Shown here one piece after another: positions 4,774-44,331 of a stretch of 52,713 nucleotides of DNA. The DNA is from an uncultured Actinomycetota bacterium (GTDB lineage Bacteria > Actinomycetota > Humimicrobiia > Humimicrobiales > Humimicrobiaceae). The notes under the pieces are model-generated. The model searched no databases. It saw only the letters and a program-made list of their open reading frames with translations, and was not told the DNA's origin. The position numbers and the translations under genes were made by a program. How positions within the stretch are numbered: position 1 is the stretch's first letter; every line of letters starts with the position of its first letter. The stretch covers positions 1 to 52,713 of the forward strand of contig CAYGYY010000002.1 in the NCBI GenBank assembly GCA_964354265.1, given 5' to 3'.

Positions 4774-4854
4774 CAATATTAAAACATAAATAGATACAGA
4801 TATGGCACATATCAGTCATTATAAATAGTGTATTTATTATGGAGCAAGAAAATA

Positions 4855-5337: not shown

Positions 5338-5423
5338 AAATATTTTTATATATATTATAATACTCTTAATCTCCCCGGATTCTAAATCCGCAATTTAAAC
5401 TCAAAAAAGGAAGGTAAAGCTGA

Positions 5424-9690: not shown

Positions 9691-10710
9691 ATGAAAGGCA
9701 AAAAGTCAAAAATTGTAATAGGGGTTTTGACAGCGGCAATCATAATAGCGTTTATCTTTACAGGTTGTTCTATTGCACAATCTGTAGAGGAAGCTGCAGG
9801 CGGATATGGGGATTATGCTGAAGGTGTGGAGTCCAGGGATGTTCTTACGGAAGCCCCTGTTGAGAAAGAGATGTTAATGGATCAGTCAGCAGCTACCACA
9901 GTACCATCCGAAGCAGTAGTAGATACCGGCGGGGAACTTTATACCCAGGCAGGCAGTTCTGATGTGGCTACCTCCCAGGTAATAAATACAAAACTTATAA
10001 AAAATGCGTCTGCCCAGATTGAAGTTGAGAAAGGTGCCTTTGAAAAAACATTTTTTTCTATTGCAAGCCTGGCGGAGCAGTATGGCGGTTATGTGAGCAA
10101 TTCCCAAAGTTATTCGGACGTTGAAGGTAATATGACAAGCGGAACTATAACTATCAGGGTTAATAAGGATAATTTTGATGCTGTGATCAATAAGATAAAA
10201 GAAATGGGTACGGTACAGAACATATCTATCAATGTTTCTGATGTCACTCAGGAGTATGTGGATAATGAGAGCAGGCTGAAAAACCTCGAGGCACAAAGGC
10301 AAAGCCTTCTTCAGCTTATGGAAAAATCAGTGAAGGTAGAGGACAGCATTGAAGTTCAAAGAGAACTAAGCAATGTTGAAGGCCAGATAGAAGTTATAAA
10401 GGGGAGGCAGAACTACCTGGATAATCTTATAGCATATTCAACAATCGATGTATATTTAGCAGAACCCCAGGCAATAACCGACTCAACTGGGGGCGGTTTC
10501 CTTGGCGCTGTAAAGAGAGGCGCACGAGGCGCGCTTACAACTTTACGAGTCATAACGATGGGAATTATTATAATAAGCCCGCTTCTATTGCTGGCAGGCA
10601 TTATAATAATTATTATCTGGCAAAGTCTGAGAGCTAAAAACAGGAGAAGAGCAATGATGAAATCCCAGACCCAGACCCAGGCTCAGGCACAGGAACAGGA
10701 GAAAAAATAA
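9691..10710 (+). CDS. DUF4349 domain lipoprotein
   Basis: Lipobox IFTGCS. Motifs IKNASAQIEVEKG, GTITIRVNKDNFD, DVTQEYVDNESRLKNLEAQ, a coiled coil and a C-terminal TM. ATG 9691 follows GAGGTG; the ORF-track start is 9685. Confidence 0.8.
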   Translation: MKGKKSKIVIGVLTAAIIIAFIFTGCSIAQSVEEAAGGYGDYAEGVESRDVLTEAPVEKEMLMDQSAATTVPSEAVVDTGGELYTQAGSSDVATSQVINTKLIKNASAQIEVEKGAFEKTFFSIASLAEQYGGYVSNSQSYSDVEGNMTSGTITIRVNKDNFDAVINKIKEMGTVQNISINVSDVTQEYVDNESRLKNLEAQRQSLLQLMEKSVKVEDSIEVQRELSNVEGQIEVIKGRQNYLDNLIAYSTIDVYLAEPQAITDSTGGGFLGAVKRGARGALTTLRVITMGIIIISPLLLLAGIIIIIIWQSLRAKNRRRAMMKSQTQTQAQAQEQEKK

Positions 10711-10782
10711 AAATATAAAAAAATTATTTCCGGCAGGAAAGAATTAGTAGAAATCAATAGGTAAATATAGGAATTCAAAAAT

Positions 10783-10824: not shown

Positions 10825-12060
10825 CTATTCATATCTTAAAGCTTCAATCGGGTTCAATCTCGCAGCCCGCATTGCAGGATATATGCCAAAGAAAAGGCCC
10901 ACTATTGTGGAAAATGTAAGTGCAAGTATTATTGAGAATGCTGAAATGCTTGTCGTCAGTATTGTAAAATTATTTACTATGAGCGATACAATGACTGCAA
11001 AAGATATTCCAAGGATACCTCCGGTAATGCTCAATACAACGCTTTCAGTTAAAAACTGAAGCAGGATATCCTTGTTTTTTGCCCCGACAGCTTTCCTGAT
11101 GCCTATTTCTCTTGTCCTTTCAGTAACTGACACAAGCATGATATTCATTATGCCGATACCTCCAACGAGAAGAGCTATCCCCGCAATGCTTGAAATTGTG
11201 ATAGTGAATATATTTGTTATTGTACCCAGGATATCAAGCAACTGGGTCTGGTTTTGAACAGTAAAATCATTCTTTTCGTCTGCAGCAAGATTGTGCGACC
11301 TTCTTAATATACGCTCTATCTCGTATGAAGCCTGGTCCATCGTCTCTTCAGAAGCGCTCTGGGCTATTATCATATTGATATAATCGATTCCGTAAAGCTT
11401 GTTCTGGGCCGTAGTTATTGGAATGGAGACCGAGTTATCCTGGTCATTGCCGAACTGGTCACTGCCTTTTGGTTTTATCGTGCCTATAATAGTAAAGTTT
11501 TTTCCGTCAATCTTTATTATTTTACCCAGGGGGTCTATCTTGCCAAAAAGCTTGTTTATTACTGTCTGGCCTATCAATGCGACATTCGCGGAATTCTGGA
11601 CATCGCTTGGGCTGTAAAACCTGCCCCTGTCTATCTTAAAATTATAAATATCCTCAGCTTTTTCATCTGATGCATAAATAGACACCATTTCACTTTTATT
11701 GAGATAAGACACTATAGAGGAATTAAGGATTGTTGGTGCAGCGCCATTAAGTAGTGTGGCCTCACGCTCAATTGCTTTAACATCATTAATTGTCAAGGCC
11801 TCCCTGTCTTTATCTTCACCCATCATTTGTTCAAATCCCTGGGATTCTTCCTCACGGTTGCCGGGCATTACTATTATAAGGTTGGAGCCTATATCCTGCA
11901 CGCTGCTTATCACGGATTCCTGTGCGCCATATCCAATCGACATCATAGCGACAACAGCGCCTACTCCAATAATGATGCCAAGCATTGTCAGAAATGCCCT
12001 GAGCTTGTTAGCAGCAAGTGACTGGAATGCTATTTTTACGCTTTCACCAAATCTCTTCAT
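10825..12060 (-). CDS. ABC transporter permease, MacB/FtsX type
   Basis: 411 aa. It has an N-terminal TM, a large extracytoplasmic MacB_PCD-like domain and a C-terminal FtsX 3-TM bundle (REIGIRKAVGA..., IYPAMRAARLNPIEALRYE). Confidence 0.9.
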   Translation of the reverse strand: MKRFGESVKIAFQSLAANKLRAFLTMLGIIIGVGAVVAMMSIGYGAQESVISSVQDIGSNLIIVMPGNREEESQGFEQMMGEDKDREALTINDVKAIEREATLLNGAAPTILNSSIVSYLNKSEMVSIYASDEKAEDIYNFKIDRGRFYSPSDVQNSANVALIGQTVINKLFGKIDPLGKIIKIDGKNFTIIGTIKPKGSDQFGNDQDNSVSIPITTAQNKLYGIDYINMIIAQSASEETMDQASYEIERILRRSHNLAADEKNDFTVQNQTQLLDILGTITNIFTITISSIAGIALLVGGIGIMNIMLVSVTERTREIGIRKAVGAKNKDILLQFLTESVVLSITGGILGISFAVIVSLIVNNFTILTTSISAFSIILALTFSTIVGLFFGIYPAMRAARLNPIEALRYE

Positions 12061-12118: not shown

Positions 12119-12895
12119 TTAGCAGGTCCTGGTTATTTTGTCCTCTAGCCGTGGCATTTTTGCAAGCATTTCAGTTGCAGCTATCGGACACTCTATTTTT
12201 TCCTCATTAAATATCAGACCATCACGCAAATATATTATACGGTTTGTATGCCTGGCAATATCCAGCTCATGCGTAACAAGCAGTATTGTTTTTCCCTTGC
12301 TGTTCAGGTTTTGAAATATTGCCATTATCTCTTCACCAGTTACAGAATCAAGGTTTCCCGTTGGCTCATCGGCAAGTATTATTGCAGGGTCATTTACCAG
12401 TGCCCTGGCAATTGCAACTCTTTGTCTCTGACCCCCGGAGAGCTCGCTGGGTTTGTGCTTTTCCCAGCCTATCAGCCCTACTGATTGCAGGGATTCATAT
12501 ATTTTTGCTTTTCTTGTTTTAGAAGAGCCTTTTTTTGCATATATCAGAGGAAGCTCTACATTGGAAACTGTGTTTGAGCGTGAAAGAAGGTTAAAAGTCT
12601 GGAACACAAACCCTATTTTTTTATTCCTGATATCTGCAAGCTGGTCGTCTTTCAGCTTGCTGACATCAATATTCTCAAGGAGGAAAGAGCCATTATCAGG
12701 AATGTCCAGGCAGCCAAGTATATTCATGAGGGTTGATTTACCGGAGCCCGAAGGCCCCATTATTGCTATGAATTCACCCCTTTGTATTTTCAGGTCTATA
12801 CCTCTTAAAGCAATTACTCCTATCTTTCCCAGGTAATATGTTTTTGTTATGCCTGTAATATCTATTATACAGTCATTATTTTTACAATCTTCCAT
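12119..12895 (-). CDS. ABC transporter ATP-binding protein (MacB/LolD-like)
   Basis: Walker A GPSGSGKST, Q-loop, signature LSGGQRQR, Walker B ILADEPT and H-loop THE. Confidence 0.93.
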   Translation of the reverse strand: MEDCKNNDCIIDITGITKTYYLGKIGVIALRGIDLKIQRGEFIAIMGPSGSGKSTLMNILGCLDIPDNGSFLLENIDVSKLKDDQLADIRNKKIGFVFQTFNLLSRSNTVSNVELPLIYAKKGSSKTRKAKIYESLQSVGLIGWEKHKPSELSGGQRQRVAIARALVNDPAIILADEPTGNLDSVTGEEIMAIFQNLNSKGKTILLVTHELDIARHTNRIIYLRDGLIFNEEKIECPIAATEMLAKMPRLEDKITRTC

Positions 12896-12931
12896 ATTAT
12901 TAGTTCCAAACTCTGATGTGAGTCAACTGCT

Positions 12932-14392
12932 CTAGGTACCGGTTTCATTTCCAGTTGAATCAGTAATTGATATTACTACGGTGTCGCCTTCTGCCAGGCC
13001 TGATTTTACCTCGATATAATCATAATTATAATTTCCTGTTGTTATCTCAACTTTCTCAATAACATTTTTCTCATCTATTTTATCAACATAACTTTTGCCG
13101 TTGTCACTATAGACCGACTGGATTGGAATATAGAGGACATTTTCCACCTTTGATATTATTACAGAGAGATTTACAGAAAGACCGTATTTTAGATAAGAGA
13201 CAGCTTCCTTGTCAGGCTCTACAGTTATCTCAAAAGATACTATTCCGGCAATGTTTTCTGAAAGCGGGGATATATCAGTGATCTTTCCTTTGAAACTAAG
13301 CTCCGGGTATGCATCAAATGTAAGTTCGGATTCCTGGTCGATTGACAGTTTTGTTATATCTGTCTCGTTTATATCTGATTTTACTAAAAGGTCTTTGCTT
13401 ATTACGGATATTGCAGCAACCCCGGGGCCTGCAGTTTCACCTTCTGCAAAGTTTGAATTAAAGACAATCCCGTCAAATGGCGCTAGGATGCTGTAATTGT
13501 CACTATCTGTTTCTACAAGCTCTATATTTATTTTCGACAGTTCATACTGTAACTCAGCCTGTTCAATGCTTTTACTCATTAGCTTTATCTGGGCCAGGGC
13601 TGTTTCAAGGCTATTGATTCCGGACCAGTAAGTTATTGACTGGTTTATAAGTGCCTGGTTATATGCGCCTTCTGCTGAATTTGTCTGCGCCTGTGAACTT
13701 TCTTTTGCCTGCTTATAAGCATCTTCAGCGGACTCTATATTGACTTCTGCCTGGGCTTCAAGTGAGGTAGTAGAGTAAGGGTCATCCTCTATCTCATCCA
13801 TGTAAAATTCCGCATTTGAAATTGCATTGCGGGCTGCCCTTATATTGGCATCAGCCATAGTATTAGCGCCTTCCATTGCCTTAAATGCATTCTGTGTTGA
13901 AGTTGCGGCAAGGTTATTGTTTGATTCTACAAGCTGGACAGCAACATGGTTTGCATCGAGAGCGCTCTGGTAGTTTATTTTAGCCATCTCTATGGATTTT
14001 CCTGCCAGTTCTAAATTTGTTTCAGCCTGGCTGACATATAGCTTGTTTTTTGAATCATCTATCCTTATAAGGGTATCGCCCTTTTTGAACTCTTTTCCTT
14101 TCTCGATAATTTCAAGTACTTTTGCGCTCTGGGTCAATGAATAATTCCTCATTTCCCTAGCATCTACTGCTCCTGTTGAAGTTATTGATTCAACAATATC
14201 TCCCCGCAATACTGTGAAAGTCTCGATTTCCTGTGATTCAGAGCCTGAACATCCGGATAAACCGGTTAGCATGAAAAAAGCAGCAGGTATCAGGGTTAGA
14301 GCGATTACAAGGATTTTTTTTAAATTTAATTTACTAAAGAATGTTTTTAGCTTAACTTTAGTAAGATTACCTTTCATAAGCTTGATTATCAC
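12932..14392 (-). CDS. HlyD/MacA-family periplasmic adaptor, lipoprotein
   Basis: Lipobox LSGCSG. It has a biotinyl-lipoyl-like segment, a long alpha-hairpin and beta-barrel C-terminal parts. It is the first gene of a three-gene minus-strand operon with the ABC ATPase and permease. Confidence 0.85.
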   Translation of the reverse strand: MIIKLMKGNLTKVKLKTFFSKLNLKKILVIALTLIPAAFFMLTGLSGCSGSESQEIETFTVLRGDIVESITSTGAVDAREMRNYSLTQSAKVLEIIEKGKEFKKGDTLIRIDDSKNKLYVSQAETNLELAGKSIEMAKINYQSALDANHVAVQLVESNNNLAATSTQNAFKAMEGANTMADANIRAARNAISNAEFYMDEIEDDPYSTTSLEAQAEVNIESAEDAYKQAKESSQAQTNSAEGAYNQALINQSITYWSGINSLETALAQIKLMSKSIEQAELQYELSKINIELVETDSDNYSILAPFDGIVFNSNFAEGETAGPGVAAISVISKDLLVKSDINETDITKLSIDQESELTFDAYPELSFKGKITDISPLSENIAGIVSFEITVEPDKEAVSYLKYGLSVNLSVIISKVENVLYIPIQSVYSDNGKSYVDKIDEKNVIEKVEITTGNYNYDYIEVKSGLAEGDTVVISITDSTGNETGT

Positions 14393-31582: not shown

Positions 31583-31807
31583 ATGAATCCGGAGAACCAA
31601 ATGGACAATTTTTACAAAGTGAGTGAAGTTGCAAAAATTTTTAAAGTCAAGCCGATAACTATAAGGAAATGGTGCCAGTCCGGAAATATAAGCGCAAAGA
31701 AGTTTGGAAAAAGTTGGTATATTTTTAAAGACGATCTTTCAGAAATGATAAATTCATCCAAAAAAAGCAGCAGGGAAGGAAGTCTTTTAAAAGAAGAGTA
31801 TATGTGA
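31583..31807 (+). CDS. Excisionase/MerR-type helix-turn-helix DNA-binding protein
   Basis: YKVSEVAKIFKVKPITIRKWCQSGNISAKKFGKSWYIFKDDL matches the HTH_17/excisionase pattern. It ends 12 nt before the flp start. Confidence 0.8.
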   Translation: MNPENQMDNFYKVSEVAKIFKVKPITIRKWCQSGNISAKKFGKSWYIFKDDLSEMINSSKKSSREGSLLKEEYM

Positions 31808-31819
31808 GGAGGTGACAGA

Positions 31820-32011
31820 ATGAAGAAATTCTTGAGCAAGGTGGTATTTTATCTTACCCAGAAAGAAAGAGGCGCAACAGCAGTAGAGTACGCATTAATT
31901 GTGGCACTGGTCGCGCTCGCAATAGTAGTAGGGGTAACAGCACTTGGCGGAGGATTGAATACAGCATTCACAAATATTGCAGCTCAGGTATCTGGAGCTT
32001 TTGGTGGCTAG
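31820..32011 (+). CDS. flp: Flp family type IVb prepilin
   Basis: 63 aa with a GGAGG SD. The Flp motif ERG|ATAVEYALIVALVALAIVV predicts cleavage after G18, giving a 45-aa mature pilin. Confidence 0.9.
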   Translation: MKKFLSKVVFYLTQKERGATAVEYALIVALVALAIVVGVTALGGGLNTAFTNIAAQVSGAFGG

Positions 32012-32172: not shown

Positions 32173-32643
32173 ATGAAGATTTTATTTAACTTACATTCTT
32201 CGAAACAAAATTCAACAAGCAAACCATACAGTAATCCAGGCAGGCTTTTTAAAAGGCCTTTACTCGGGCAACAGTTTTCAATTCAAAGACAGGGCGGCGC
32301 AGCAGCTGTTGAATTTGCTCTGGTCTTTCCTTTTCTGGTGATGGTACTGTTTGGAATTTTTCAATTCGGCATAGCATATAATAACTGGATAGCCTTAACA
32401 CATGCTGCACGTGAGGGAGCAAGGCTTGCTGCAGTCGGGGAATTTGAGGAACAAAGAGTACTGGATTCTGCTCCAAGCGTAAATATAACAAGCGTAAATG
32501 CAAGTGGTATTGGTGGAGATATCGGCGAACCCGTAACTGTCACAGTAAGAGGCGATGTGCTTGATATCCAGATTCCCTTTATTGGTCACTGGCCGGTACA
32601 ACTTGAGAGCACTGCAACAATGCGGCTGGAAACATCTGACTGA
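32173..32643 (+). CDS. tadE: TadE-like pseudopilin
   Basis: The TadE motif GGAAAVEFALVFPFLVMVLFGIFQFG is preceded by an unusually long leader of ~42 aa. There is no alternative in-frame start closer to the motif. Confidence 0.8.
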   Translation: MKILFNLHSSKQNSTSKPYSNPGRLFKRPLLGQQFSIQRQGGAAAVEFALVFPFLVMVLFGIFQFGIAYNNWIALTHAAREGARLAAVGEFEEQRVLDSAPSVNITSVNASGIGGDIGEPVTVTVRGDVLDIQIPFIGHWPVQLESTATMRLETSD

Positions 32644-32734: not shown

Positions 32735-33703
32735 ATGATTAAAAAGCTATTTAAAAGATTTTCTTCTCAAAACGGTCAGGCTGCTATCATTATCGGGTTG
32801 ATGATAGCAACACTTATAGGGGCCGTCACTTATGTAGTAGACGTAGGCTCCATTTACGAAGCCAGGCGGACATATCAGACGATTGCAGACTCTTCGGCTC
32901 TTTCAGGAATACAGGAACTCCCGGAAAATCCCTCAAGGGCAATACAATCCGCTATTGACTATGCAGCAATGCAAGGGGTTTCCTTAGATTCTTCAGACAT
33001 TACCATAAGCTCCACTTTTGTTGCAGATGACACCATCACTGTGACAGCATCAAATCCGCAAAAACAGCTGTTTTTTGGCTGGGTCTTCGGACGAAATGAC
33101 ACTCCGGTAGGGGCAGATGCAACTGCGATGGTGGGCATGCCTGCAGAGTTTCTGGGAGTGGTACCATGGGGGGTTCCTGAAGAGGAATGGACCCCTGGTG
33201 GTAATTACACATTAAAATGTGGTCCTCCTGGTCAAGGAGGTGGGGCGCAAACAGGAAATTTCCAGGCTCTTGCTATAGGGGGGACCGGTGCTAGCAATTA
33301 TGAAGAGAACTGTGCCACCGGTGCTGATATCCCTCTTCACATTGGAGATGTTGTAGATACTGAGCCCGGAAATATGAAAGGACCGACTATTGATGGGACC
33401 GAAACCAGAATTTATGACTATGAGGATTATAATTTCAATACTTTTGGAGAACTTACAGAATCAGTTGATGGCGGTTATGCTTTAAAGAGAAATGACAGCC
33501 AGTTTGTAATTTGCCCTATAATACCTGAACTACCAGCAGGAAGAGATGAAGTAGAGCTTATTAAATTTGTACCGTTCATAATCACTCAAATCACAGGTTC
33601 GGAAGTTATCGGCACATTCCTTAATAAAGCTATTATCAAGTACGATGGAGAAATGGTGGGCATCGATGATTCAGGCATCAGGGTCATCAGGTTGATACAT
33701 TAG
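32735..33703 (+). CDS. tadG: TadG-like (Tad_N) pilus assembly protein, no vWA domain
   Basis: The N-terminus NGQAAIIIGLMIATLIGAVTYVVDVGSIYEARR...ADSSALSG is typical of the TadG N-terminal domain. The C-terminal part carries GNFQALAIGGTGASNYE and TEPGNMKGPT. Confidence 0.75.
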   Translation: MIKKLFKRFSSQNGQAAIIIGLMIATLIGAVTYVVDVGSIYEARRTYQTIADSSALSGIQELPENPSRAIQSAIDYAAMQGVSLDSSDITISSTFVADDTITVTASNPQKQLFFGWVFGRNDTPVGADATAMVGMPAEFLGVVPWGVPEEEWTPGGNYTLKCGPPGQGGGAQTGNFQALAIGGTGASNYEENCATGADIPLHIGDVVDTEPGNMKGPTIDGTETRIYDYEDYNFNTFGELTESVDGGYALKRNDSQFVICPIIPELPAGRDEVELIKFVPFIITQITGSEVIGTFLNKAIIKYDGEMVGIDDSGIRVIRLIH

Positions 33704-33987: not shown

Positions 33988-34926
33988 ATGAAGATAAGAA
34001 TAGTATTACTGCTTCTGGCAATTATTTTCGGGGTTGCAGCAGTTTTTGGAGTGATGATATATCTAAATAACGTCAGGTCTTCAGTTGAAAAAGAGGGAGA
34101 GCTTGTAAGTGTGCTTGTTGCAGCAGAAATAATTCCCAAAGAGATATCTGTTGAGGATATGATTGAAAGAGAACTGGTGAAAGTCAGCCAGCTTCCAAAA
34201 AAGTATATTGTCGAAGGCGTGATTAACTCTTTTGATGAATATAAGGGTTATGTTGCTTTTACTCAGATAAATAAGGGAGAACAAATTACACCTTCAAAGC
34301 TAATAAAGCTTGAAGATATTAAAATGTCTTTTACTGTACCGGAGGGGATGATGGCAGTTTCAGTGCCATATGATGAAATAAGGGGGGTAGCTGTTTCGAT
34401 AAAACCGGGAGACAAGGTCAATATTATCGCGACTTTTGAGCCAAAAACAGAAGATGTAATTATTCTTACCAAGGAAATGATAATGGCGATGCTTGTCGAA
34501 GGTGGCCCTGAGCAGCAAACCGGGCAGGTCGATGAAATGGGGCAGGTAACACAGGGTTTCAGTTTTGTCCCTCTTGGTGAGACATCTGCCAAAGTTGATA
34601 AGATCCTTGATGGAAAGGAATATATAGTTTATCCCCAGACAAAAATCCTGTTATGGAACATAGAAGTATTAAGTGTCAGGTCCCAGGTGGAAGCTGCTGT
34701 AGCAAAAAAGGAGCCAGAGGATGGTACATTAAATTCAAATAAAGATAAGGCTGAGGAAATCGATAAAAATACAGTAGTTCTTGCAGTCACACCTGAACAG
34801 GCTGAAAAGCTGGTATTTGCAGAGGAACTTGGAAAAGCATGGTTTGCGCTTGTTCCTGCAAGCGGCATGAAAGAAGAAGATACGCCTGGAAGGACTTACT
34901 TGAATATAATCGACGAGGAGAAATAA
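33988..34926 (+). CDS. cpaB: Flp pilus assembly protein CpaB/RcpC
   Basis: It has an N-terminal TM, a SAF-like segment (GEQITPSKL) and MMAVSVPYDEIRGVAVSIKPGDKVNII. The C-terminus carries VVLAVTPEQAEKLVFAEELG. Confidence 0.85.
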   Translation: MKIRIVLLLLAIIFGVAAVFGVMIYLNNVRSSVEKEGELVSVLVAAEIIPKEISVEDMIERELVKVSQLPKKYIVEGVINSFDEYKGYVAFTQINKGEQITPSKLIKLEDIKMSFTVPEGMMAVSVPYDEIRGVAVSIKPGDKVNIIATFEPKTEDVIILTKEMIMAMLVEGGPEQQTGQVDEMGQVTQGFSFVPLGETSAKVDKILDGKEYIVYPQTKILLWNIEVLSVRSQVEAAVAKKEPEDGTLNSNKDKAEEIDKNTVVLAVTPEQAEKLVFAEELGKAWFALVPASGMKEEDTPGRTYLNIIDEEK

Positions 34927-35029: not shown

Positions 35030-36178
35030 ATGAAAAAAATACCCGTTGTAATAATTGATAAAGATGAGAAGAATATCGAAAAGACTCTTGCCCTTCTTGA
35101 AATATTTCCGGATATTGGCGCAACAAAATTCAGTAATGATATTTATGACCTTGAAATGGTCCTGGTGAAAAAGATCCCCACTGTTGTAATAATAGGTCCC
35201 AATTATGTCCTGAGTGACCTGCAGGAATTACTGGTCCATTACAGCAATTCTTTAAATGCTATCAAGATAATCCTGCTGTCTAAAAGCATTTCTGCTGAAC
35301 TTTTAAAATCGGCCCTTAAACTTAATATCCATGATTTAATAGAATACCCGTTCCAGGAAAAAGATCTCCGGGATTCATTTAAGAGGGCTGAATATATTTT
35401 TACAGACAATGCCGGGCAGGAATCAAAAGAAATATCTGAGTGCGAACGAATAATGTTTTTCAGCACAAAAGGCGGAGCAGGCAATACTTTCCTTGCAATA
35501 AATTTTGCAATAGCGCTTAAAGCTAAAACAAATAAAGAAGTGGTTTTATATGACATGAACTTCCAGTTTGGAGATGTTGCGCTGATGCTGAACATATATC
35601 CAAAAAATACTATTTTTGACCTGGTGGCAATAAACAAATATGATCCGGAAAACTTGAGTATTTTACTGACACAGCATAGCTCGGGTATAAAAATCCTGCC
35701 CTCCCCGATAGACCCCTCTCAGGGTGAATCTATAAGCATTGATTCTTCATTGAAGATTTTTGATAGCCTGACCTGCGTTTGTGATTATGTTGTAATAGAT
35801 GCGCCCTTCGGGTTCAAAGATAATGTCTTATCCGTAATGGATAAGATAGATTATATGTTCCTGGTTGCTACAAAAGATGTGCCCAGTATTAAAAACCTGA
35901 AGATCTGCCTGCAGCTGCTGGAAAGGCTTTCATATCCGAAGGAAAGAACATATGTAATTTTGAACCGCGCAGACAGCAGGGTGGATTTTGAAGTTGATGA
36001 GATAGAAAAGACAATACAGCGAAAAATCGATATACATATCCCCGGAGACAAACTTATTCCTATAAGTATAAATAAGGGTGTTCCGATAATCACCAGCTCA
36101 CCAAAGTCTCCAGTTGGGACTAGTATTTCTAAGATGTTGGATGTGGTCATTCCTAAGAAGGAAAAAGTAAAGATTTGA
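35030..36178 (+). CDS. tadZ: TadZ/CpaE: atypical receiver domain fused to ParA/MinD-like ATPase
   Basis: The receiver-like N-terminus lacks the phospho-acceptor Asp (VVIIGPNY) and the conserved Lys (IEYPF). The ParA-like half has the deviant P-loop KGGAGNT (aa 147-153). Confidence 0.85.
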   Translation: MKKIPVVIIDKDEKNIEKTLALLEIFPDIGATKFSNDIYDLEMVLVKKIPTVVIIGPNYVLSDLQELLVHYSNSLNAIKIILLSKSISAELLKSALKLNIHDLIEYPFQEKDLRDSFKRAEYIFTDNAGQESKEISECERIMFFSTKGGAGNTFLAINFAIALKAKTNKEVVLYDMNFQFGDVALMLNIYPKNTIFDLVAINKYDPENLSILLTQHSSGIKILPSPIDPSQGESISIDSSLKIFDSLTCVCDYVVIDAPFGFKDNVLSVMDKIDYMFLVATKDVPSIKNLKICLQLLERLSYPKERTYVILNRADSRVDFEVDEIEKTIQRKIDIHIPGDKLIPISINKGVPIITSSPKSPVGTSISKMLDVVIPKKEKVKI

Positions 36179-36206: not shown

Positions 36207-37562
36207 ATGGGACTTCAGGAAAAGATACGGAACCTGCAGGAGATTGAAAATAAATTATCGCCTACCAGCGGGGAAACCCTTTCTCTTCGCGCAAAACGGA
36301 TAGAGGATATAAAAAGAGACGTACACCACAGGCTGGTTGAAGAGCTTTCAGACGTGATTTTCAGGAAAAATATCAGTGATTCCGAATTGAAATCCAAGGT
36401 ATCTGCCAGTACGCAGAAAATGGTGTTCGAAACTGATTTTCCACTTACTCATGAAGAAAGAAACAAAATAATAACAGAAATAATCGATAACATCGTAGGT
36501 TATGGACCTATAGAGGAATTCTTAAGGGATAAAGAAGTTACAGAAATAATGGTTAATAATCCCTCTACGATATTTGTTGAAAAATTCGGCAAGATCCATA
36601 TGACTTCCAAGTCTTTCATAGATGAAAACCATCTAATGAGGATAATAGATAAAATAGTCTCAAAGATAGGTCGAAGGGTCGATGAGGCATCGCCTTATGT
36701 AGACGCAAGGTTGCCGGATGGTTCAAGAGTAAATATAATCATAGGACCTCTGGCACTGAATGGACCGGTAATGACTATAAGGAAATTTTCTGCCGAACCT
36801 TTCACAACAGAGGATCTTATCCAGATGGGGACATTTTCAAGAAAACTTTCAGATTTTATTAAGGCTTGTGTCAAAGGAAGGGTAAATATACTTATTTCAG
36901 GAGGTACAGGAACTGGTAAAACGACCTTATTAAATGTAGTTTCCTCCTTTCTCCCGGACGATGAGAGAATAATAACTATTGAAGATGCCGCTGAACTCCA
37001 GCTCGATCAGTCCCATGTCATAAGGCTTGAATCAAGGCCTCCAAACATAGAAGGTAAAGGGGCTGTAATAATTCGGGACCTTGTCAGGAATGCCCTGAGG
37101 ATGAGACCCGACAGAATAGTGGTCGGTGAAGTAAGGGGTGGAGAGGCGCTTGACATGCTCCAGGCAATGAATACCGGTCATGACGGAAGCTTAAGTACGG
37201 TGCACGCTAACTCACCCAGGGATGTTCTATCCAGGCTTGAAACAATGGTTTTAATGGCAGGAGTAGACCTTCCGGTAAGGGCAATAAGGGAACAGATTTC
37301 TTCAGCAATAAACCTTATTGTTCACATGAGCAGGCTAAAAGACGGTACCAGGAAGATTATTAAAGTCACTGAAGTTCAGGGAATGGAAGGCGAAATAATA
37401 ACCCTGCAGGATATCTTTGTATTCGATTATTCAGCAGGTATGGACGATAAGGGAAATTATATAGGAACGATAAAATCTACGGGACTGAGGCCAAAATTTC
37501 TGGCAAGGCTGCATGATTACGGTGTTGAAGTGCCAAACACTATTTTTATGGAAGAAACATAA
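36207..37562 (+). CDS. tadA: CpaF/TadA secretion ATPase
   Basis: Walker [10 protein letters not shown], Asp box [10 protein letters not shown], Walker [13 protein letters not shown] and His box [13 protein letters not shown]. Confidence 0.95.
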
Positions 37563-37586: not shown

Positions 37587-39644
37587 ATGAAGAACAATAT
37601 AAATAAAGACAGCTTAAAAAACAATATAAATACCCTGGCAATTTTGTTGCTTATTTGCATCACAGTTCCTTTTCTTGCTTTTTTATCACCTGGCACTATT
37701 TGGGCAGAACCTGAAGAATCCCAGACCCAGGTGCAGGATTTCGAAGAAGGGCCAATAGTATCAGAATCTGGAGAAACAATAATAAAAGAGGTAGATGCAG
37801 CAGGTTTTCCGAATATAAGTATGTATATAAGTTTCAGTGAAGATTCAGAGATAGGGGTCCAGGAACTTGGAAGAGAAAACTTCATTATTACTGAAAACGG
37901 AAAAAATATTGAGAATTTTGAAATAAAGAAAATAGGAGAAATAAGTGAACCCATGGGGATAGCCCTGGCTGTGGATGCAAGCGGGAGCATGCAGGGCAAT
38001 CCGATAGAAGATGCAAAAAGCGCATCGAGAGTATTTATTGATGCAATGAGGGATATAGACAAGATAACAGTTGTCGGCTTTTCCGATACTGCAACGCTAT
38101 ACTCGAGTTTTACATCTGATAAGCAAAGACTGGAAAATGCTGTAGCTGGCATAGTTGCCAATGGTGAAACCGCATTATTCGACGGCATAATAAAAGGTAT
38201 TGAACAGTTTAATAATTTTAAAGACCTGAAACATAAATATCTGGTAGTGCTTTCAGATGGTGCGGATACTGTGAGCACTAAAACCGCAGTAGACTGTATC
38301 AACAAAGCCAGTTCTGCTGGAATAACAGTATATTCAATAGCTCTTTTATCAAACGAATTTAATCCACGGGACCTGGAGCATATCGCTTTAAGTACAAATG
38401 GGGAGCTTTTAAAAACTGCTGATTCAAATGAACTGATAGGCCTATATTCAAGTATTTCCGAAAAAATAAGAAACCAGTATAAAATAACCTACAGGAGCAG
38501 TGCTGCGACTGTTGAAAAAATCTCATCCTTAATATCTATAAGCGCAGGTGGATATAATGATTCGATAGAGATAAGTTATGAAAATCCTTTTGTAACCCTC
38601 TCCGGCAACGGTGTCATATCAAAATCCCAGTCTTCTCTTTCCATGACAAAAATCTCAATTTTGAATCTATGGTGGATGAGGCTTCTGATATATATACTGA
38701 TTTTTGCCAGCGTCACTCTTTTTATTTATATAATCTCTACGGTAATGATACCGGGTAAACCAAGTTTAAAAGGCAGGATGGATTACTATCTTTATAATGC
38801 ATCCGATATTACAGCAGAAAGTGAAACTGGAGAAAAAAAGAAAACAGGGTTCTTCTCAAGGTTTTCAAAAGCAACAAATAAAGCATCAGGAAATGCAAGA
38901 TACGGGGAGCTTTTTGACCTTAAGCTTAGAAGAGCAGGAATGAATATTTCCGGGACCAAATTTGTTACCATGCATATGGTTGCTGTGGTTGTCGTTACAG
39001 CAGCAGTGTTTATTTTGACTAAGAATTTTTTAGTGACACTGGCAGTCGTTGTTTTTATAATCTTTATACCGTTCTTACTTATAAACTTTAAAACCAACCA
39101 AAGGATAAAAAAATTCAATGAGCAGCTCCCTGATACTCTGCAGCTTGTAGAAGGAGCGCTAAAAGCAGGATACAGCCTCAACCAGTCCCTGGTAATGGTG
39201 ATAAATGAAACAAAACCCCCGATTTCTGAAGAATTCAGGATAACCTTGAATGAGATAAGAATGGGCATTTCAGAAAAAGCGGCACTTGAAAATATGGCTA
39301 AGAGAATAAACAGTGAATTATTTGACTGGGTCATTCTTGCAGTCAATATCCAGCGGGAAGTTGGAGGCAATCTTGCTGAGATTATGGATATTATTGCCAA
39401 TACAATAAGGGAGAAAGAAAGAGTATTAAGGCAGATAAAGGCACTTACAGCCGAAGGAAAACTTTCAGCATATGTTTTGATAGGTCTGCCCATTATCCTG
39501 GGAATCGCGCTATCGATTCTTAACAAGGCATACATCAGCGTCTTGTTTTCGACAAAAATAGGTTTTATGATGCTCGCTCTTGCTGCAATCCTGATGATTA
39601 TAGGAATAGTCTGGATTTTAAGGATAGTAAAAATTGACTATTAA
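37587..39644 (+). CDS. tadB: vWA-domain / TadB (T2SS-F platform) fusion protein
   Basis: 685 aa. It has a signal/anchor ending TIWA|EPEE and a vWA domain with MIDAS residues (DASGS, GETALFDG, LSDGAD). A TM spans aa ~357-387. The TadB-like T2SSF domain carries LPDTLQLVEGALKAGYSL and three further TMs. Confidence 0.85.
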   Translation: MKNNINKDSLKNNINTLAILLLICITVPFLAFLSPGTIWAEPEESQTQVQDFEEGPIVSESGETIIKEVDAAGFPNISMYISFSEDSEIGVQELGRENFIITENGKNIENFEIKKIGEISEPMGIALAVDASGSMQGNPIEDAKSASRVFIDAMRDIDKITVVGFSDTATLYSSFTSDKQRLENAVAGIVANGETALFDGIIKGIEQFNNFKDLKHKYLVVLSDGADTVSTKTAVDCINKASSAGITVYSIALLSNEFNPRDLEHIALSTNGELLKTADSNELIGLYSSISEKIRNQYKITYRSSAATVEKISSLISISAGGYNDSIEISYENPFVTLSGNGVISKSQSSLSMTKISILNLWWMRLLIYILIFASVTLFIYIISTVMIPGKPSLKGRMDYYLYNASDITAESETGEKKKTGFFSRFSKATNKASGNARYGELFDLKLRRAGMNISGTKFVTMHMVAVVVVTAAVFILTKNFLVTLAVVVFIIFIPFLLINFKTNQRIKKFNEQLPDTLQLVEGALKAGYSLNQSLVMVINETKPPISEEFRITLNEIRMGISEKAALENMAKRINSELFDWVILAVNIQREVGGNLAEIMDIIANTIREKERVLRQIKALTAEGKLSAYVLIGLPIILGIALSILNKAYISVLFSTKIGFMMLALAAILMIIGIVWILRIVKIDY

Positions 39645-39668: not shown

Positions 39669-40598
39669 ATGAATATATATATTATCATGGCAATAGTCTT
39701 TATAGCTGTTGTGAGCCTTACAATGTTCTTTTGCCTGCCGGCTATAATCAGGAGCCTTCCAAAAAAATCGCTCGTAAAGCTGAAATATTATGATAATGCT
39801 TCAAAACTTTCTGAGCAGAAAGCTACTATACTTGAAAAATCACTAAACCCGGTCTTCAGGAAAGTAATATCCCAGGCAAGAAAGATACTGCCAAAAAATC
39901 TTGTTGAATCTGTAAAAAGCAGGCTGGAGCTTGCCGGTATACAGGATGTGGTAAGGATTGATATTTTTCTGGCAATTAAATTTTTCCTGCCATTCATATT
40001 TCTTTTTGCTTTGATTTTCATGATGCTGTTTTTCGATGTGCCGGGAACTGTAAGGCTCGCAATAGTGATTCTTGTTCCTTTTACTTACATTCTTCCCGAC
40101 TACTATCTTAAAAGCAAGACTGCAAAAAGACAGGATGAAATAAGGAGGAGCCTTCCAAATGCACTTGACCTTCTCACCATAAGTGTTGAAGCAGGTCTTG
40201 GGTTTGACCAGGCATTGTACAAAGTTGCAGTTAATACAAAAGGCACGCTAGGTGATGAATTCAAGAGGACATTGAAAGAAATGGAAATCGGAGTATCAAG
40301 AAAAGATGCCTTGAAGAATTTAAGCAAGAGGACAGATATATCAGAATTGAACACTTTTATTTTTTCAATCATCCAGGCTGAAATATTCGGCATATCTATT
40401 GGCAAGGTCCTGAGGATCCAGGCAGGAGAAATGCGTATAAAAAGAAGACAAATAGCGGAAGAAAAGGGTATAAAAGCGCCTGTCAAACTGGTATTTCCAA
40501 CTATCCTTTTTTTGTTTCCTGCCCTGATGGTTATCATATTAGGGCCTGCCGGTATAAGGATAATAGATACATTCAAAGTAATAATGGGTGGGAATTAA
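39669..40598 (+). CDS. tadC: TadC (T2SS-F platform protein)
   Basis: 309 aa. It has an N-terminal TM, LPNALDLLTISVEAGLGFDQAL and KAPVKLVFPTILFLFPALMVIILGP. Confidence 0.88.
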   Translation: MNIYIIMAIVFIAVVSLTMFFCLPAIIRSLPKKSLVKLKYYDNASKLSEQKATILEKSLNPVFRKVISQARKILPKNLVESVKSRLELAGIQDVVRIDIFLAIKFFLPFIFLFALIFMMLFFDVPGTVRLAIVILVPFTYILPDYYLKSKTAKRQDEIRRSLPNALDLLTISVEAGLGFDQALYKVAVNTKGTLGDEFKRTLKEMEIGVSRKDALKNLSKRTDISELNTFIFSIIQAEIFGISIGKVLRIQAGEMRIKRRQIAEEKGIKAPVKLVFPTILFLFPALMVIILGPAGIRIIDTFKVIMGGN

Positions 40599-40674: not shown

Positions 40675-41550
40675 ATGGAACAAAAAGAAATAATAGAAAC
40701 TGCAGGAGACGCAGGCATTAGGCAAACGAAGGAAAAGAATGAATTTGAGGATATATTCAGGGAGATGCTTAGCATTGAGGATACCAAGAATCTTAGCAGC
40801 AAAGTTAAATACTGCCTGATAAAAATATCAATAGATAATTTTAATGAAATTTCATCGTTAATGAAGGCTGAAGAAAAAAATTCACTGATATACAAGTTCT
40901 CAAATTTTTTATTCAAAAATCTCAGAAAGAAAGATATATACCTCATGTCTGAGCCAGGGAAGTTCCTGGTGATTTTTCCGGATATAAGCGTGGATGCTGC
41001 AGATACAGTAATGAAAAGAATAATAGTCTCTGCAGAAAAAGAATTCAGTCAGAACTTAAAGGTGAGTTGGGATGTCCTGGTAGGTACAAACAAGGAAGAA
41101 GAAATCAAACCATTTATCAGGAAATCAGATCTTATTTCAAATTTAAATAAAAATCCTACAACGGGTAGAGTCGTTGAAAAGGTGATTTTAAAAAAACAGG
41201 CGTCAAGTCTGATTTTCAGGAATTTTCTTATTTCATTTATATTATTTGCTTTAATTCTTATTGCTGGCATTACTCTTATATTTTATGGGACAAGCAGATT
41301 TTATTATTTCCCTGGATATGAAGCGTTTGAGAATTTCCTGCAAAATATGATGCCTGGCGCAATAAGATATTTCAGCAGTATAAACATTAAAGCTACCCCA
41401 TTTCTATTCTTTATAGTTTTGATTCTTTCACTTAGCCTGACTTTTGGTCTGGGGATGTTCACAGGTTTTATAATTAACTTGAAGATGAAAAACTCAGGAA
41501 CGCTCAGGATCAAAATAGCAGCTCTGCAAAGCAAGAATAATGCGGCTTAA
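40675..41550 (+). CDS. Membrane-anchored degenerate GGDEF-like domain protein (A-site EPGKF, I-site RKKD retained)
   Basis: aa 46-120 align without gaps to the remembered PleD GGDEF core. IDIDFF corresponds to ISIDNF, RAID-x5-GGEEF to RKKD-x5-EPGKF, and VVIMPD to LVIFPD. Two or three C-terminal TM segments follow. Confidence 0.65.
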   Translation: MEQKEIIETAGDAGIRQTKEKNEFEDIFREMLSIEDTKNLSSKVKYCLIKISIDNFNEISSLMKAEEKNSLIYKFSNFLFKNLRKKDIYLMSEPGKFLVIFPDISVDAADTVMKRIIVSAEKEFSQNLKVSWDVLVGTNKEEEIKPFIRKSDLISNLNKNPTTGRVVEKVILKKQASSLIFRNFLISFILFALILIAGITLIFYGTSRFYYFPGYEAFENFLQNMMPGAIRYFSSINIKATPFLFFIVLILSLSLTFGLGMFTGFIINLKMKNSGTLRIKIAALQSKNNAA

Positions 41551-41580: not shown

Positions 41581-41751
41581 AAACCAGGATATCTGGCCTT
41601 AAAACTATACATTTTTTTATAGGATTTCACTTCCTGATTATTAAAGATTTAATCTTGAATACATGTTGAAAAAAGTAGTATCATTTATCTGGATGCCTTT
41701 AGAAGGTTATCCTGAGATGATTTGGCAGAAATATTTTTCCGGAGAGGATAT

Positions 41752-42741
41752 ATGTATACTGGCGCTGATTTCCTTATAGATAAAGATATGAACATTTATC
41801 TGAGCGAGGTCAATACCGGACTACCCGGAGGTGCACAGGAATATGATCTTATACATCGGTTGTTGTTTAATAGAGCTTCTGGTGTTTTTTTAAAGATTGA
41901 AAAAATTTGCAGAGAGCAATACAAAAAACCCTTTAAAAAATATATCAGGGAACTGTCGTTTTTTAAGGATTTGAAGACACTAAAGATATGGATGGATGAA
42001 CAGGGGCCCCCTCCTGTAAATCCGGATAATTATTTAAGGCTGGAAGACAAATGGGTGCAGTATTTAGTCCTTTCCGGGAATTATCCTGTAATTCCAACAG
42101 TTTTATTTAATAAGGAAAATCTTGGATACTTTAAAGAGGCACTGTTGCAGGATCAGTGTTTCATATTAAAAAGACGGTTTGGCAGGGGCGGCAGGGGCTT
42201 CAGGAAGATATTGGATTTAAGTGGTCTTGATAACTTGATAGAATCAGAAATTACCAGCAATTTTTATATACAGCAGCCCTACCTAAACAGTACTGTAAAG
42301 TGCGGCAAAGACATGTTTAGATTATCTTTGAGGGCGCTATCTTTTGCAGGGAAATTCATATGTATGTATGCCAACATTTCAAAAAAGGTCACTTCCAATC
42401 ACGGGTTTCTCTTTTATGTGAATCCGGATAAACACTTAGGTATAAAGGGCTGCAGTTTTAATATAACGCTGGTAACTAAAAGAGCATGGGAAGCGCATAT
42501 TTTTTTTGGAAAAGATATGCCAGATTATCTATACCACAATCTTAATGAAGAACGGGTTTCGGATTCAGTGTTAAACATTCCGCAGGATATATATGAAAAA
42601 ATAATAAAAATATCTACTTCTATAAGCCGATTTTATATGGAGCTGGATGCTTCAGAATTGCCCAAATGCTATCTTGAGGAAGAGGGTTTTAATGATTTTC
42701 CAGATGGCCAGAAAATAACAGAAGAGATGAAAGGAGAGTAA
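41752..42741 (+). CDS. ATP-grasp-like protein with apparently permuted motif order
   Basis: ATG 41752 follows GGAGAGG; the ORF-track TTG is at 41722. The N-terminus GADFLIDKDMNIYLSEVNTGLPGG resembles the C-terminal Mg/ATP motif of ATP-grasp enzymes. In the middle, DKW..YLVL...YPVIPT, FILKRRFGRGGRGF, FYIQQPYL and TSNHG resemble the N-terminal and central motifs. Confidence 0.5.
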   Translation: MYTGADFLIDKDMNIYLSEVNTGLPGGAQEYDLIHRLLFNRASGVFLKIEKICREQYKKPFKKYIRELSFFKDLKTLKIWMDEQGPPPVNPDNYLRLEDKWVQYLVLSGNYPVIPTVLFNKENLGYFKEALLQDQCFILKRRFGRGGRGFRKILDLSGLDNLIESEITSNFYIQQPYLNSTVKCGKDMFRLSLRALSFAGKFICMYANISKKVTSNHGFLFYVNPDKHLGIKGCSFNITLVTKRAWEAHIFFGKDMPDYLYHNLNEERVSDSVLNIPQDIYEKIIKISTSISRFYMELDASELPKCYLEEEGFNDFPDGQKITEEMKGE

Positions 42742-42742
42742 G

Positions 42743-43483
42743 ATGAAAGGTAAAATGAAAATTAAAGTATTGATGCTTGCAATAGCGGCCTTTGTAAGCC
42801 TGGTTTCTTTAACTTCTGTTTCATGCATAAGACTGGCAGGATTGCAGGGCTCAGGCAATGTAGTAAGCGAGGAAAGAAGCGTATCAGGATTTAATGCTGT
42901 TGCTGTCAGTTCAGGGATGAATCTGTACCTTAGGCAGGGTGATACTGAGTACTGCAAGCTGGAAACCGATGATAATATTATTTCCCAGATAGTTACTGAA
43001 GTAAAAAATGAAAAACTGGTTATAGAGTATAAGAATTTTCTTGGAGGGATAAGCACACGAAAGCCTGTAAATGTTTATGTTACAGTAAAAAATTTAAATG
43101 AGGTTTCAGCTTCCAGTGGTTCAAGGGTAGAAAGTGAGCTTATTAATTCAAATTCACTTGAAATAAACATGGGCAGCGGTTCAAATGGTGAATTCATTGT
43201 CAGCACCAGGAGTCTTGATGTCGGTCTTTCAAGCGGCTCACAGTTGGAAGTATCAGGAGAGACACAGAGCCAGAACGTAGACCTTTCAAGCGGGGTGACC
43301 TACAATGCTGAAGACCTTACAAGCATGAATGCAGAGTTAGATGTTTCAAGCGGTGCACAAGCTAAAATTATGGTAAGCGATAGCCTTGATGTAGATATCT
43401 CAAGCGGAGGCAGTGTAGAATATTCCGGCTCACCGCAGGTAACGTCAAACATATCGTCAGGAGGTAGCCTAAAAAATAATTAG
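42743..43483 (+). CDS. DUF2807 / head GIN-domain lipoprotein
   Basis: It has a signal peptide with Cys (SVSCIRL), GSGNVVSEERSVSGFNAVAVSSGMNLYL, repeated beta-helix-like SSGS motifs and a C-terminal YSGSPQV...SSGGSL. Confidence 0.8.
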   Translation: MKGKMKIKVLMLAIAAFVSLVSLTSVSCIRLAGLQGSGNVVSEERSVSGFNAVAVSSGMNLYLRQGDTEYCKLETDDNIISQIVTEVKNEKLVIEYKNFLGGISTRKPVNVYVTVKNLNEVSASSGSRVESELINSNSLEINMGSGSNGEFIVSTRSLDVGLSSGSQLEVSGETQSQNVDLSSGVTYNAEDLTSMNAELDVSSGAQAKIMVSDSLDVDISSGGSVEYSGSPQVTSNISSGGSLKNN

Positions 43484-43569: not shown

Positions 43570-44331
43570 ATGAAAACAAAGAGAAAAAATAATTTTGCAA
43601 AGCCGATCTTTATTACAGCTGCAATTGTAGTGGTTATTATTCTTACATTTTCACTTAGCTCATGCATTACAATAAGAGTAAATGATATAAAAGGCTCAGG
43701 GCAAATCGAGACTAAAGAATTCGAAGTCTCGGATTTTAATACCCTGGAGTTTTCAGGAATAGGAAACATCTATATAACCCAGGGAGATACAGAATCATTA
43801 AAAGTGGAAGCAGAAAACAATGTCATTGATAATCTTAAGGTTTCCACACAGGGTAATACATTATCAATAGGTTTTAAGGATAGGTTAGTCAATGTGATAC
43901 CAACAAAATCGATTAATTATTACCTGACGGTTAAAGACCTTAGAGAACTCAAAATATCAGGAGCCGGAAATGTAAAATGTGAACAATTAATAACCCAGGA
44001 CTTGACGATACTATCAAGCGGGCTCGGAAACATGGAAATGCAACTTGCTGCTGAAGAGTTACGGGTAGATATCTCAGGTGCAGGTAAGATTGTAATGTCG
44101 GGTGAGGTACAGACCCAGGACATAACAATATCAGGTGCTGGTTCTTATGGAGCTTTCAATCTGGAAAGCAGCGATTGCAGGATAAATATAACCGGTTTAG
44201 GCAAAGCAGAATTAAACGCATCTGATACGCTTGATATAAGGATGAGCGGCATTGGAAGCATTGAATATAAAGGTAATCCGGAGGTGGCCCAGAATATTTC
44301 AGGAGGCGGGAAAATAAAGAGTGTTGATTGA
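43570..44331 (+). CDS. DUF2807 / head GIN-domain lipoprotein (paralog)
   Basis: Lipobox LSSCIT, GSGQIETKEFEVSDFNTLEFSGIGNIYI, and a C-terminal YKGNPEV...SGGGKI. The architecture matches the preceding gene. Confidence 0.8.
   Translation: MKTKRKNNFAKPIFITAAIVVVIILTFSLSSCITIRVNDIKGSGQIETKEFEVSDFNTLEFSGIGNIYITQGDTESLKVEAENNVIDNLKVSTQGNTLSIGFKDRLVNVIPTKSINYYLTVKDLRELKISGAGNVKCEQLITQDLTILSSGLGNMEMQLAAEELRVDISGAGKIVMSGEVQTQDITISGAGSYGAFNLESSDCRINITGLGKAELNASDTLDIRMSGIGSIEYKGNPEVAQNISGGGKIKSVD

Follow-up and report, generated by a model that had tools for sequence, protein, structure and literature searches.

Platform proteins of type IV filaments are commonly regarded as adaptors that lie within the membrane and expose hardly anything outside it. 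The canonical platform subunit of Tad pili, TadB (CpaG), carries one T2SSF domain (PF00482), is paired with TadC (CpaH), and is encoded between the ATPase and TadC. Elsewhere in type IV pilus machines, von Willebrand factor A (vWA) domains with a MIDAS (metal-ion-dependent adhesion site) are found on TadG/CpaL of Tad systems, on PilY1/PilC1 of type IVa pili (T4aP) and on PilB of Streptococcus sanguinis. CpaL, the Caulobacter ortholog of TadG, consists of a module that resembles a pilin, plus a MIDAS vWA domain (PMC13170226, PMC11870444). We analyzed a 52,713-nucleotide stretch of DNA from an uncultured Actinomycetota bacterium (contig CAYGYY010000002.1 of assembly GCA_964354265.1; the whole stretch is called the window), in which one gene joins a vWA domain to a TadB protein. 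The product of this gene, vWA-TadB, almost certainly serves as the TadB subunit of the platform in a secretin-less Tad/Flp (type IVc) pilus machine of an uncultured low-GC member of the Actinomycetota. The GC content of the window was about 38%, and the closest named homologs came from metagenome-assembled genomes (MAGs) labelled just "Actinobacteria/Actinomycetota bacterium"; a look-up for an exact match to the vWA-TadB protein gave no record.

The C-terminal 300 amino acids (aa) of vWA-TadB correspond to a complete canonical TadB, with a first transmembrane (TM) helix predicted to start outside the cytoplasm (TM1), then a basic loop, a hairpin of TM helices, a T2SSF bundle predicted to be cytoplasmic and further TM helices at the C-terminus, and the gene likewise lies between those of the ATPase and TadC. 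However, vWA-TadB adds before TM1 a signal peptide that looks cleavable and a beta/vWA module of about 320 aa that is predicted to be exported. An earlier note on this DNA, made from the sequence alone, held that canonical TadBs are about 300 aa long and have no ectodomain, and the plain TadBs that we found (317-352 aa, none with an ectodomain) agree with this.

Like TadG/CpaL and PilY1/PilC1, vWA-TadB appears to bring a MIDAS vWA domain to a type IV pilus machine outside the cytoplasmic membrane. However, those proteins, attached by a beta-propeller or by a module like a pilin, depart together with the pilus tip, whereas the vWA domain of vWA-TadB is covalently held on the platform. CpaL's vWA domain is also split by inserted beta-barrels, whereas that of the window protein is unsplit and has no pilin-like N-terminus. 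Pfam detected no PF13400 on vWA-TadB; its N-terminus is a Sec-type signal peptide and its C-terminus is a platform. Because it has no pilin-like module and cannot leave the membrane, vWA-TadB is not a protein of the TadG/CpaL/PilY1 type.

Domain structure, conservation and predicted topology of vWA-TadB

The claim that a single uninterrupted ORF (open reading frame) of 685 aa joins the vWA domain to TadB was confirmed by the ORF itself, which has an ATG start and no internal stops, by the Pfam matches and by full-length homologs (Table 1). PF00092 (VWA) matched aa 125-283 with 50.9 bits against a cutoff of 23.8, PF13519 (VWA_2) matched aa 126-225, and PF00482 (T2SSF) matched aa 523-641 with 64.8 bits against a Pfam cutoff of 25.2. 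The protein carries a single T2SSF domain, the TadC paralog adjoins it, and the gene lies directly downstream of that of the TadA/CpaF ATPase in the Flp pilin operon. As judged from these matches, vWA-TadB is a bona fide TadB with a bona fide MIDAS vWA domain.

An AlphaFold2 (AF2) model of vWA-TadB was made with 22 homologs in the alignment, and its mean pLDDT (the AF2 confidence score) was 76.7. The pLDDT was 90-96 over aa 123-295, which matches exactly the extent that the earlier note had given to the vWA domain (about nt 37953-38471). That note had divided the protein into a signal/anchor, a beta-rich module, the vWA domain, a TM segment and a complete TadB half. Hydrophobicity and the AF2 model showed all five parts, but two more parts had gone unnoticed: a second beta module at aa 298-332 and, at aa 333-361, a linker of about 29 aa that is disordered. 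Across the vWA-TadB family this linker, or tether, is Pro/Ala-rich and 20-51 aa long, with a median of 26 aa. The N-terminal beta module contains a TENG motif, whose E103 is kept in 130/140 family representatives, and the basic loop after TM1 contains a conserved LERAG motif that is common to TadBs. Hydrophobicity, charge bias and the AF2 helices agree with a polytopic membrane protein for which a cytoplasmic T2SSF bundle is predicted.

Comparison of the AF2 model with the PDB by Foldseek gave 373 matches at E ≤ 1e-3, with vWA domains in all matches listed. The best of them were proteins with vWA and beta-sandwich domains, namely ITIH1 (6fpy), Catenulispora 4fx5 and ArnB (8s05), in which a vWA domain is flanked by beta-sandwich strands, much as the beta modules flank that of the window protein. 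The NCBIfam model TIGR03436 (acidobact_VWFA), which describes a family of secreted vWA proteins, aligned with ectodomain aa 91-308 (2.3e-20); with 73.3 bits against a cutoff of 81.25, the ectodomain is by this score related to the family but not a member of it. In contrast to vWA-TadB, none of these proteins is joined to a platform for secretion or for pili. The vWA pilin PilB of S. sanguinis (PDB 7b7p) was also among the structural matches (E = 1.6e-8), and there too a MIDAS vWA domain is grafted onto a type IV pilus component of a monoderm. However, the graft in PilB is on a minor pilin, at the filament tip, where it serves as an adhesin, whereas the graft in the window protein is on the platform, at the filament base.

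Conservation in the family was measured on 140 representatives, whose median identity to the window protein was 29%. The MIDAS elements that had been recognised by eye (DASGS, the T in GETALFDG and the D in LSDGAD) are present and 96-100% conserved: D130 was found in 140/140 representatives, S132 and S134 in 139/140 each, T195 in 134/140 (with Ser in three more) and D224 in 138/140. All five residues were invariant in the 22-homolog alignment. Ectodomain columns that were at least 90% conserved gathered on the three MIDAS loops (D130/S132/S134/M135, G193/T195/D199 and D224/G225/D227/S230). Since the MIDAS is conserved to this degree at a median identity of 29%, the metal site appears from these alignments to be under strong purifying selection. 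The mean pairwise identity was highest in the T2SSF bundle (52%), followed by the vWA domain (36%), TM1-3 with the cytoplasmic loop (21-23%) and the tether (19%). Judged by these values, the vWA domain is a constrained part of the protein and no drifting appendage. In three members, P0126, P0128 and P0131 (889-899 aa), Pfam found two VWA stretches ahead of the TadB half, and such tandem vWA-vWA-TadB variants fit a modular binding domain. P0129 (894 aa), which was outside the Pfam scan, has the same appearance.

The earlier note had placed the vWA domain outside the cytoplasm, and three concordant sequence arguments predict the same. First, the N-terminus of vWA-TadB resembles a Sec signal, with an n-region rich in K, an h-region that spans aa 16-34 and a putative cleavage site between IWA and EPEE. 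The h-region was found in 137/140 representatives, with K/R before it in 98%; a loose small-x-small pattern followed it in 140/140, which is a weak criterion alone. Second, aa 35-365 are acidic (27 K/R vs 47 D/E), while aa 385-480 behind TM1 are basic (15 K/R vs 7 D/E), and the ectodomain was net negative in 87% of the representatives. Third, the T2SSF bundle of the platform family is cytoplasmic and engages the ATPase. As the bundle must be in the cytoplasm to meet the ATPase, counting the helices back through TM3, TM2, the basic loop and TM1 puts the N-terminus of TM1 outside. Almost all plain TadBs (27/28) start straight with a TM helix equivalent to TM1, and in the six that were inspected basic residues occurred solely after this helix. 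The N-terminus of plain TadBs should therefore face outward, and the ectodomain of vWA-TadB would have been grafted onto an end that already faced that way.

Distribution of the fusion

Homologs with 72-74% identity had the same length and the same Pfam architecture as the window protein. Homologs with 62% and 72% identity were found at the same operon position on independent contigs from different samples (ENA ERZ25039600, 143 kb; ERZ27245470; NCBI GCA_964528815.1), and the multiple alignment was unbroken across the vWA/TadB junction. A word-indexed search gave more than 100 clusters (90% identity) with both VWA and T2SSF, down to 23-25% identity, including a Gaiellaceae fusion protein. When 1.84 billion representatives of 50%-identity clusters were scored with a profile made from 22 members, all of the best 150, from which the figures are taken, had E ≤ 1e-164; 140 of these were 560-720 aa long, and nearly all of them aligned end to end in one stretch. 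The fusion is carried by at least 140 protein clusters at 50% identity, which is a lower bound. An assembly chimera or frameshift was effectively ruled out by the fused ORF on independent contigs and in these clusters.

Loci were counted in a scan of GTDB species representatives, in which the 80 best-matching loci were examined. The vWA domain and TadB were in one ORF at 48 of the 80 loci, or 48 of 78 if two split loci are set aside. In these two, L045 (8722-9498 / 9941-10726) and L077 (9749-11233 / 11080-11697), the halves lie in separate or overlapping ORFs, as a result of either natural fission or frameshifts in MAG assemblies. The fusion loci span the Coriobacteriia, Acidimicrobiia and Actinomycetes (Nocardioides, Kribbella, Saccharothrix, Planomonospora, Micromonosporaceae, Micrococcales and Nanopelagicales). 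In a search that started from a member in the Micromonosporaceae, many cultured species carried the fusion, among the genera Actinoplanes, Micromonospora, Krasilnikovia, Catellatospora, Couchioplanes, Pilimelia, Hamadaea and Kribbella, and so did one "Ca. Limnocylindrales" MAG. Plain TadBs were found in Anaerolineae, Acidobacteriota and a minority of the Actinomycetota loci. By these counts, the fused form of TadB predominates in the Actinomycetota loci that matched best.

In a neighbor-joining tree of the TadB half, which was made without support values as a test for a single origin, fusions filled most of the Actinomycetota part and a few plain TadBs were nested inside. This suggests an old fusion with some losses. 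One contig that is labelled as a Gammaproteobacteria MAG (L051, CAXMSE010000105.1) encodes a TadB of about 648 aa that grouped in the tree with Acidimicrobiales fusions, and by this placement the contig is probably mis-binned. On a 2.5-Mb chromosome (L008, OW818687.1), two Tad operons stand in tandem at a distance of about 8.6 kb, and each encodes a vWA-TadB (3695-5611 and 12275-14194) and a TadC.

The earlier note had implied that the fusion is rare. This did not hold, given the numbers above, its presence in many cultured actinomycetes and the fact that both domains are already annotated automatically, as "VWA domain-containing protein", "type II secretion system F family protein" or, at JGI, "TadB/Mg-chelatase subunit ChlD". 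vWA-TadB is thus a widespread, automatically annotated and functionally undescribed variant of a known machine component, and no singular oddity of the window genome. The gain for annotation is modest: proteins now called "VWA domain-containing protein" or "T2SS F family protein" could become a distinct TadB subfamily. More widely, if platforms over a large part of a phylum expose a conserved domain for metal-dependent binding, this would be a new extracytoplasmic element of the monoderm Tad machine, and vWA-TadB offers a natural experiment on the role of vWA domains in pilus biogenesis. Its occurrence in cultured genera, Actinoplanes included, opens the role of the MIDAS to direct testing; the type IV pili of Actinoplanes zoospores reportedly have an adhesion phenotype.

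The earlier note had also allowed that the architecture might prove to be common and already functionally described. It is common, but we found no paper that describes its function. The literature search found no paper on a vWA domain fused to TadB, to T2SSF or to a type IV platform, although the paper on Actinoplanes zoospore pili (Kimura et al., 2019) may mention one. A survey of the type IV filament superfamily went no further than to call the actinobacterial Tad systems atypical.

Possible role of the tethered vWA domain

vWA-TadB is encoded by the eighth gene of a co-directional Tad/Flp operon (HTH, Flp, TadE, TadG-like, CpaB/RcpC, CpaE/TadZ-like, CpaF/TadA, vWA-TadB and TadC), and the loci of its relatives keep the same gene order. 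No secretin was detected among the annotated operon genes and the flanking ORFs that were scanned, which fits a monoderm host. The claim that the TadG-like protein of the window has no vWA domain was borne out by both sequence and fold: even at E ≤ 1 Pfam detected PF13400 alone, no DxSxS motif was present, and the AF2 model (pLDDT 80, predicted TM-score 0.69), which showed a long pilin-like N-terminal helix and a beta-rich domain, had a best Foldseek match in the PDB of E = 0.68 and no vWA match. A hidden vWA domain in this protein was ruled out on these grounds. The vWA domain was also absent from eight TadG-like proteins of other fusion loci. With hidden Markov models built from the vWA-TadB family, no standalone vWA domain was found within 10 kb of any fusion locus. 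A complementary distribution, with the vWA domain on a neighboring gene in plain-TadB loci, was not found with the same models over the same distance, except at L056 and L078.

Almost certainly, a Sec signal peptide and a module of about 320 aa that is predicted to be exported (vWA domain, beta sandwich-like strands and tether) have been grafted onto the N-terminus of TM1 of TadB, which is predicted to face outward. As to their role, we tentatively favor the reading that a component of the pilus machine docks at the pilus base on the metal site of the tethered vWA domain. The Caulobacter platform has been modelled as a trimer of CpaG/CpaH (TadB/TadC) heterodimers, with CpaJ, CpaK and CpaL on top before assembly (PMC13170226, PMC11870444). 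Were the machine of vWA-TadB built likewise, the platform would bear a crown of three tethered vWA domains a few nm above the membrane, around the pilus priming site. Each MIDAS would hold a divalent cation, and an acidic residue from another machine component outside the cytoplasm would complete its coordination; the minor-pilin TadE/TadG-like priming complex and the CpaB cage are candidates for this partner. Docking by the vWA domain would scaffold or license pilus initiation at the base, and the vWA function that diderm Tad and T4a systems have on pilin-like proteins (TadG/CpaL and PilY1) would be hard-wired onto the platform. The analysis shows how the gene is built, which domains it encodes, how well the MIDAS is conserved, where in the operon the gene stands and how widely the fusion is spread; topology, stoichiometry, partner and effect are inferred.

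Several points weigh against docking. The topology is predicted by sequence rules, the number of three comes from the Caulobacter models, and the partners named are candidates. The plain-TadB loci of Chloroflexota, Acidobacteriota and some Actinomycetota almost all (L056 and L078 excepted) had no vWA domain within 10 kb, and therefore the domain is no general requirement of these Tad machines, and a relocated TadG vWA domain is not forced. In addition, a vWA domain tethered to the platform cannot travel to the pilus tip and so cannot reproduce the tip-adhesin role proposed for CpaL/PilY1. The wider proposal, that most Actinomycetota Tad machines have the vWA function of a mobile tip protein (TadG/CpaL, PilY1) built permanently into the platform in three copies, seems unlikely. 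If it were true, the essential and conserved job of pilus vWA domains would be metal-dependent filament priming at the base rather than tip adhesion, and it would supply the missing extracytoplasmic organizer of monoderm type IVc machines; a 2019 review of monoderms raises the question of what keeps the type IVc assembly subcomplex together.

A doubtful alternative is that the MIDAS binds a cell-wall component (peptidoglycan-associated, or an anionic wall polymer) and acts as an envelope anchor or stator, positioning the platform under the wall of a secretin-less monoderm that has no outer-membrane subcomplex. MIDAS sites bind acidic groups in general, no secretin was detected among the annotated locus genes, the fusion occurs mainly in Actinomycetota, and a flexible Pro/Ala-rich tether of 20-51 aa would suit a reach into the wall zone. 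However, the locus still encodes CpaB, which usually forms the cage or serves in alignment, monoderm loci with plain TadB do without any vWA domain, and Pfam detected no wall-binding motif (LysM, SLH or PG_binding) on the window protein.

The earlier note had proposed that the vWA domain could couple ligand or surface contact, or else minor-pilin docking, to the assembly motor. It is rather improbable that the ectodomain is a sensor, which would detect an external ligand or surface contact and signal through TM1 to the platform and motor so as to tune extension and retraction. The vWA domains of PilY1 and CpaL have been proposed as mechanosensors or adhesins in other pilus systems, through the covalent tie to the platform a signal could pass directly to the motor, and the MIDAS is strongly conserved. 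However, a linker of about 26 residues would hold the domain at the membrane, beneath the wall and out of reach of external surfaces, and this linker, being disordered (pLDDT < 50) and only 19% identical across the family, would be a poor transmitter of force or conformation. Furthermore, the vWA domain keeps a fair degree of conservation (36%), whereas adhesin tips typically evolve fast. Of the two halves of the proposal, docking of a machine component is thus more plausible than the sensing of external surfaces.

Less probable again is a divalent-cation gauge, in which occupancy of the MIDAS by Mg2+, Ca2+ or Mn2+ would by itself regulate platform activity, with no protein ligand. The intact and conserved MIDAS would allow this, and calcium controls T4aP dynamics through PilY1. 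However, a MIDAS normally leaves one coordination position open for a ligand carboxylate, and the flanking beta modules and tandem-vWA variants suggest macromolecular binding. Finally, although the halves lie in separate ORFs at two of the 80 loci, the possibility that the window gene is an assembly chimera or a read-through of two genes, or that its vWA half is cytoplasmic, is negligible in view of the identical architecture at 72-74% identity and on independent contigs and samples, the at least 140 clusters, nearly all aligned end to end, the multiple alignment that is unbroken across the junction, and the signal peptide, charge bias and TM parity, which all put the vWA domain outside.

Genes of the operon and its surroundings

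The coordinates of vWA-TadB, its parts and the other operon genes are given in Table 1.

Table 1. Positions in the window of the vWA-TadB gene, the parts of its product and the other genes of the Tad/Flp operon.
Feature	Position (nt)	Strand	Evidence and remarks
vWA-TadB gene (stop codon included)	37587..39644	+	One ORF; Pfam VWA and T2SSF; full-length homologs
Sec-type signal peptide, aa 1-40	37587..37706	+	K-rich n-region, h-region aa 16-34, cleavage predicted between IWA and EPEE; hydrophobicity, charge
N-terminal beta module, aa 56-120	37752..37946	+	Four AF2 strands (64-70, 76-83, 99-103, 111-115); pLDDT 73-85; conserved TENG motif
vWA domain, aa 123-295	37953..38471	+	PF00092/PF13519; pLDDT 90-96; Foldseek vWA matches, E down to 5.6e-11; PDB sequence profile matches
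MIDAS DxSxS (D130, S132, S134)	37974..37988	+	Invariant in 22 homologs; conserved in 140 representatives
MIDAS T195 (in GETALFDG)	38169..38171	+	T in 134/140, S in 3
MIDAS D224 (in LSDGAD; family LSDGxDT)	38256..38258	+	D in 138/140
C-terminal beta module, aa 298-332	38478..38582	+	AF2 strands 298-303, 311-320, 323-332; conserved NQYxIxY (alignment consensus)
Flexible tether, ectodomain to TM1, aa 333-361	38583..38669	+	pLDDT < 50 for aa 336-360
TM1, aa 362-387, predicted outside to inside	38670..38747	+	Hydrophobicity; AF2 helix 362-387
Basic loop, predicted cytoplasmic, aa 388-455	38748..38951	+	Charge count over aa 385-480; LERAG motif
TM2-TM3 hairpin, aa 456-505	38952..39101	+	Hydrophobicity; AF2
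T2SSF (TadB) domain, aa 523-641	39153..39509	+	PF00482, 9.6e-18; helical bundle, predicted cytoplasmic, running into TM4
C-terminal TM4-TM5, aa 625-681	39459..39629	+	Hydrophobicity; AF2
HTH_17/MerR-like (excisionase-type) small regulator	31583..31807	+	13 nt upstream of the flp pilin gene
Flp pilin	31820..32011	+	PF04964, 3.6e-16
TadE-like pseudopilin	32173..32643	+	PF07811
TadG-like protein, PF13400 N-terminus, without vWA	32735..33703	+	Pfam at E ≤ 1; no DxSxS; AF2 and Foldseek
CpaB/RcpC	33988..34926	+	PF16976; TIGR03177, 123 bits vs cutoff 71
CpaE/TadZ-like ParA/MinD ATPase	35030..36178	+	Profile matches
CpaF/TadA secretion ATPase	36207..37562	+	PF00437, 4.9e-68; TIGR03819, 339 bits, below cutoff 373.15
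TadC, plain 309-aa platform paralog	39669..40598	+	PF00482, 5e-15

The first gene of the operon, which encodes the HTH_17/MerR-like protein, is a possible dedicated operon regulator. The TadG-like protein is a conserved pilus component with a confidently predicted fold that has no solved relative. The ORFs scanned around the operon included no recognizable prepilin peptidase, and the enzyme may be encoded elsewhere, as has been reported for Bifidobacterium breve. Rfam detected no family at threshold, rRNA included, anywhere in the window.

Directly after TadC lies a gene for a protein of 291 aa (40675-41550, +) with a sub-threshold GGDEF match (Pfam, 22.4 bits against a cutoff of 23.8) and fragmentary NCBIfam matches to SiaD/PleD. 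Relatives whose vWA-TadB is 62-72% identical have at the same position a gene for 289-300 aa without a Pfam match. From these partial matches, the window gene may encode a degenerate GGDEF-like accessory or a c-di-GMP-related partner of the Tad operon. Further downstream, behind a 339-aa gene without a Pfam match (41722-42741), which stands where the relatives have a PadR-HAAS-DUF4097 module, are two tandem DUF2807 (GIN-domain, adhesin-head-like) genes (42743-43483 and 43570-44331, +).

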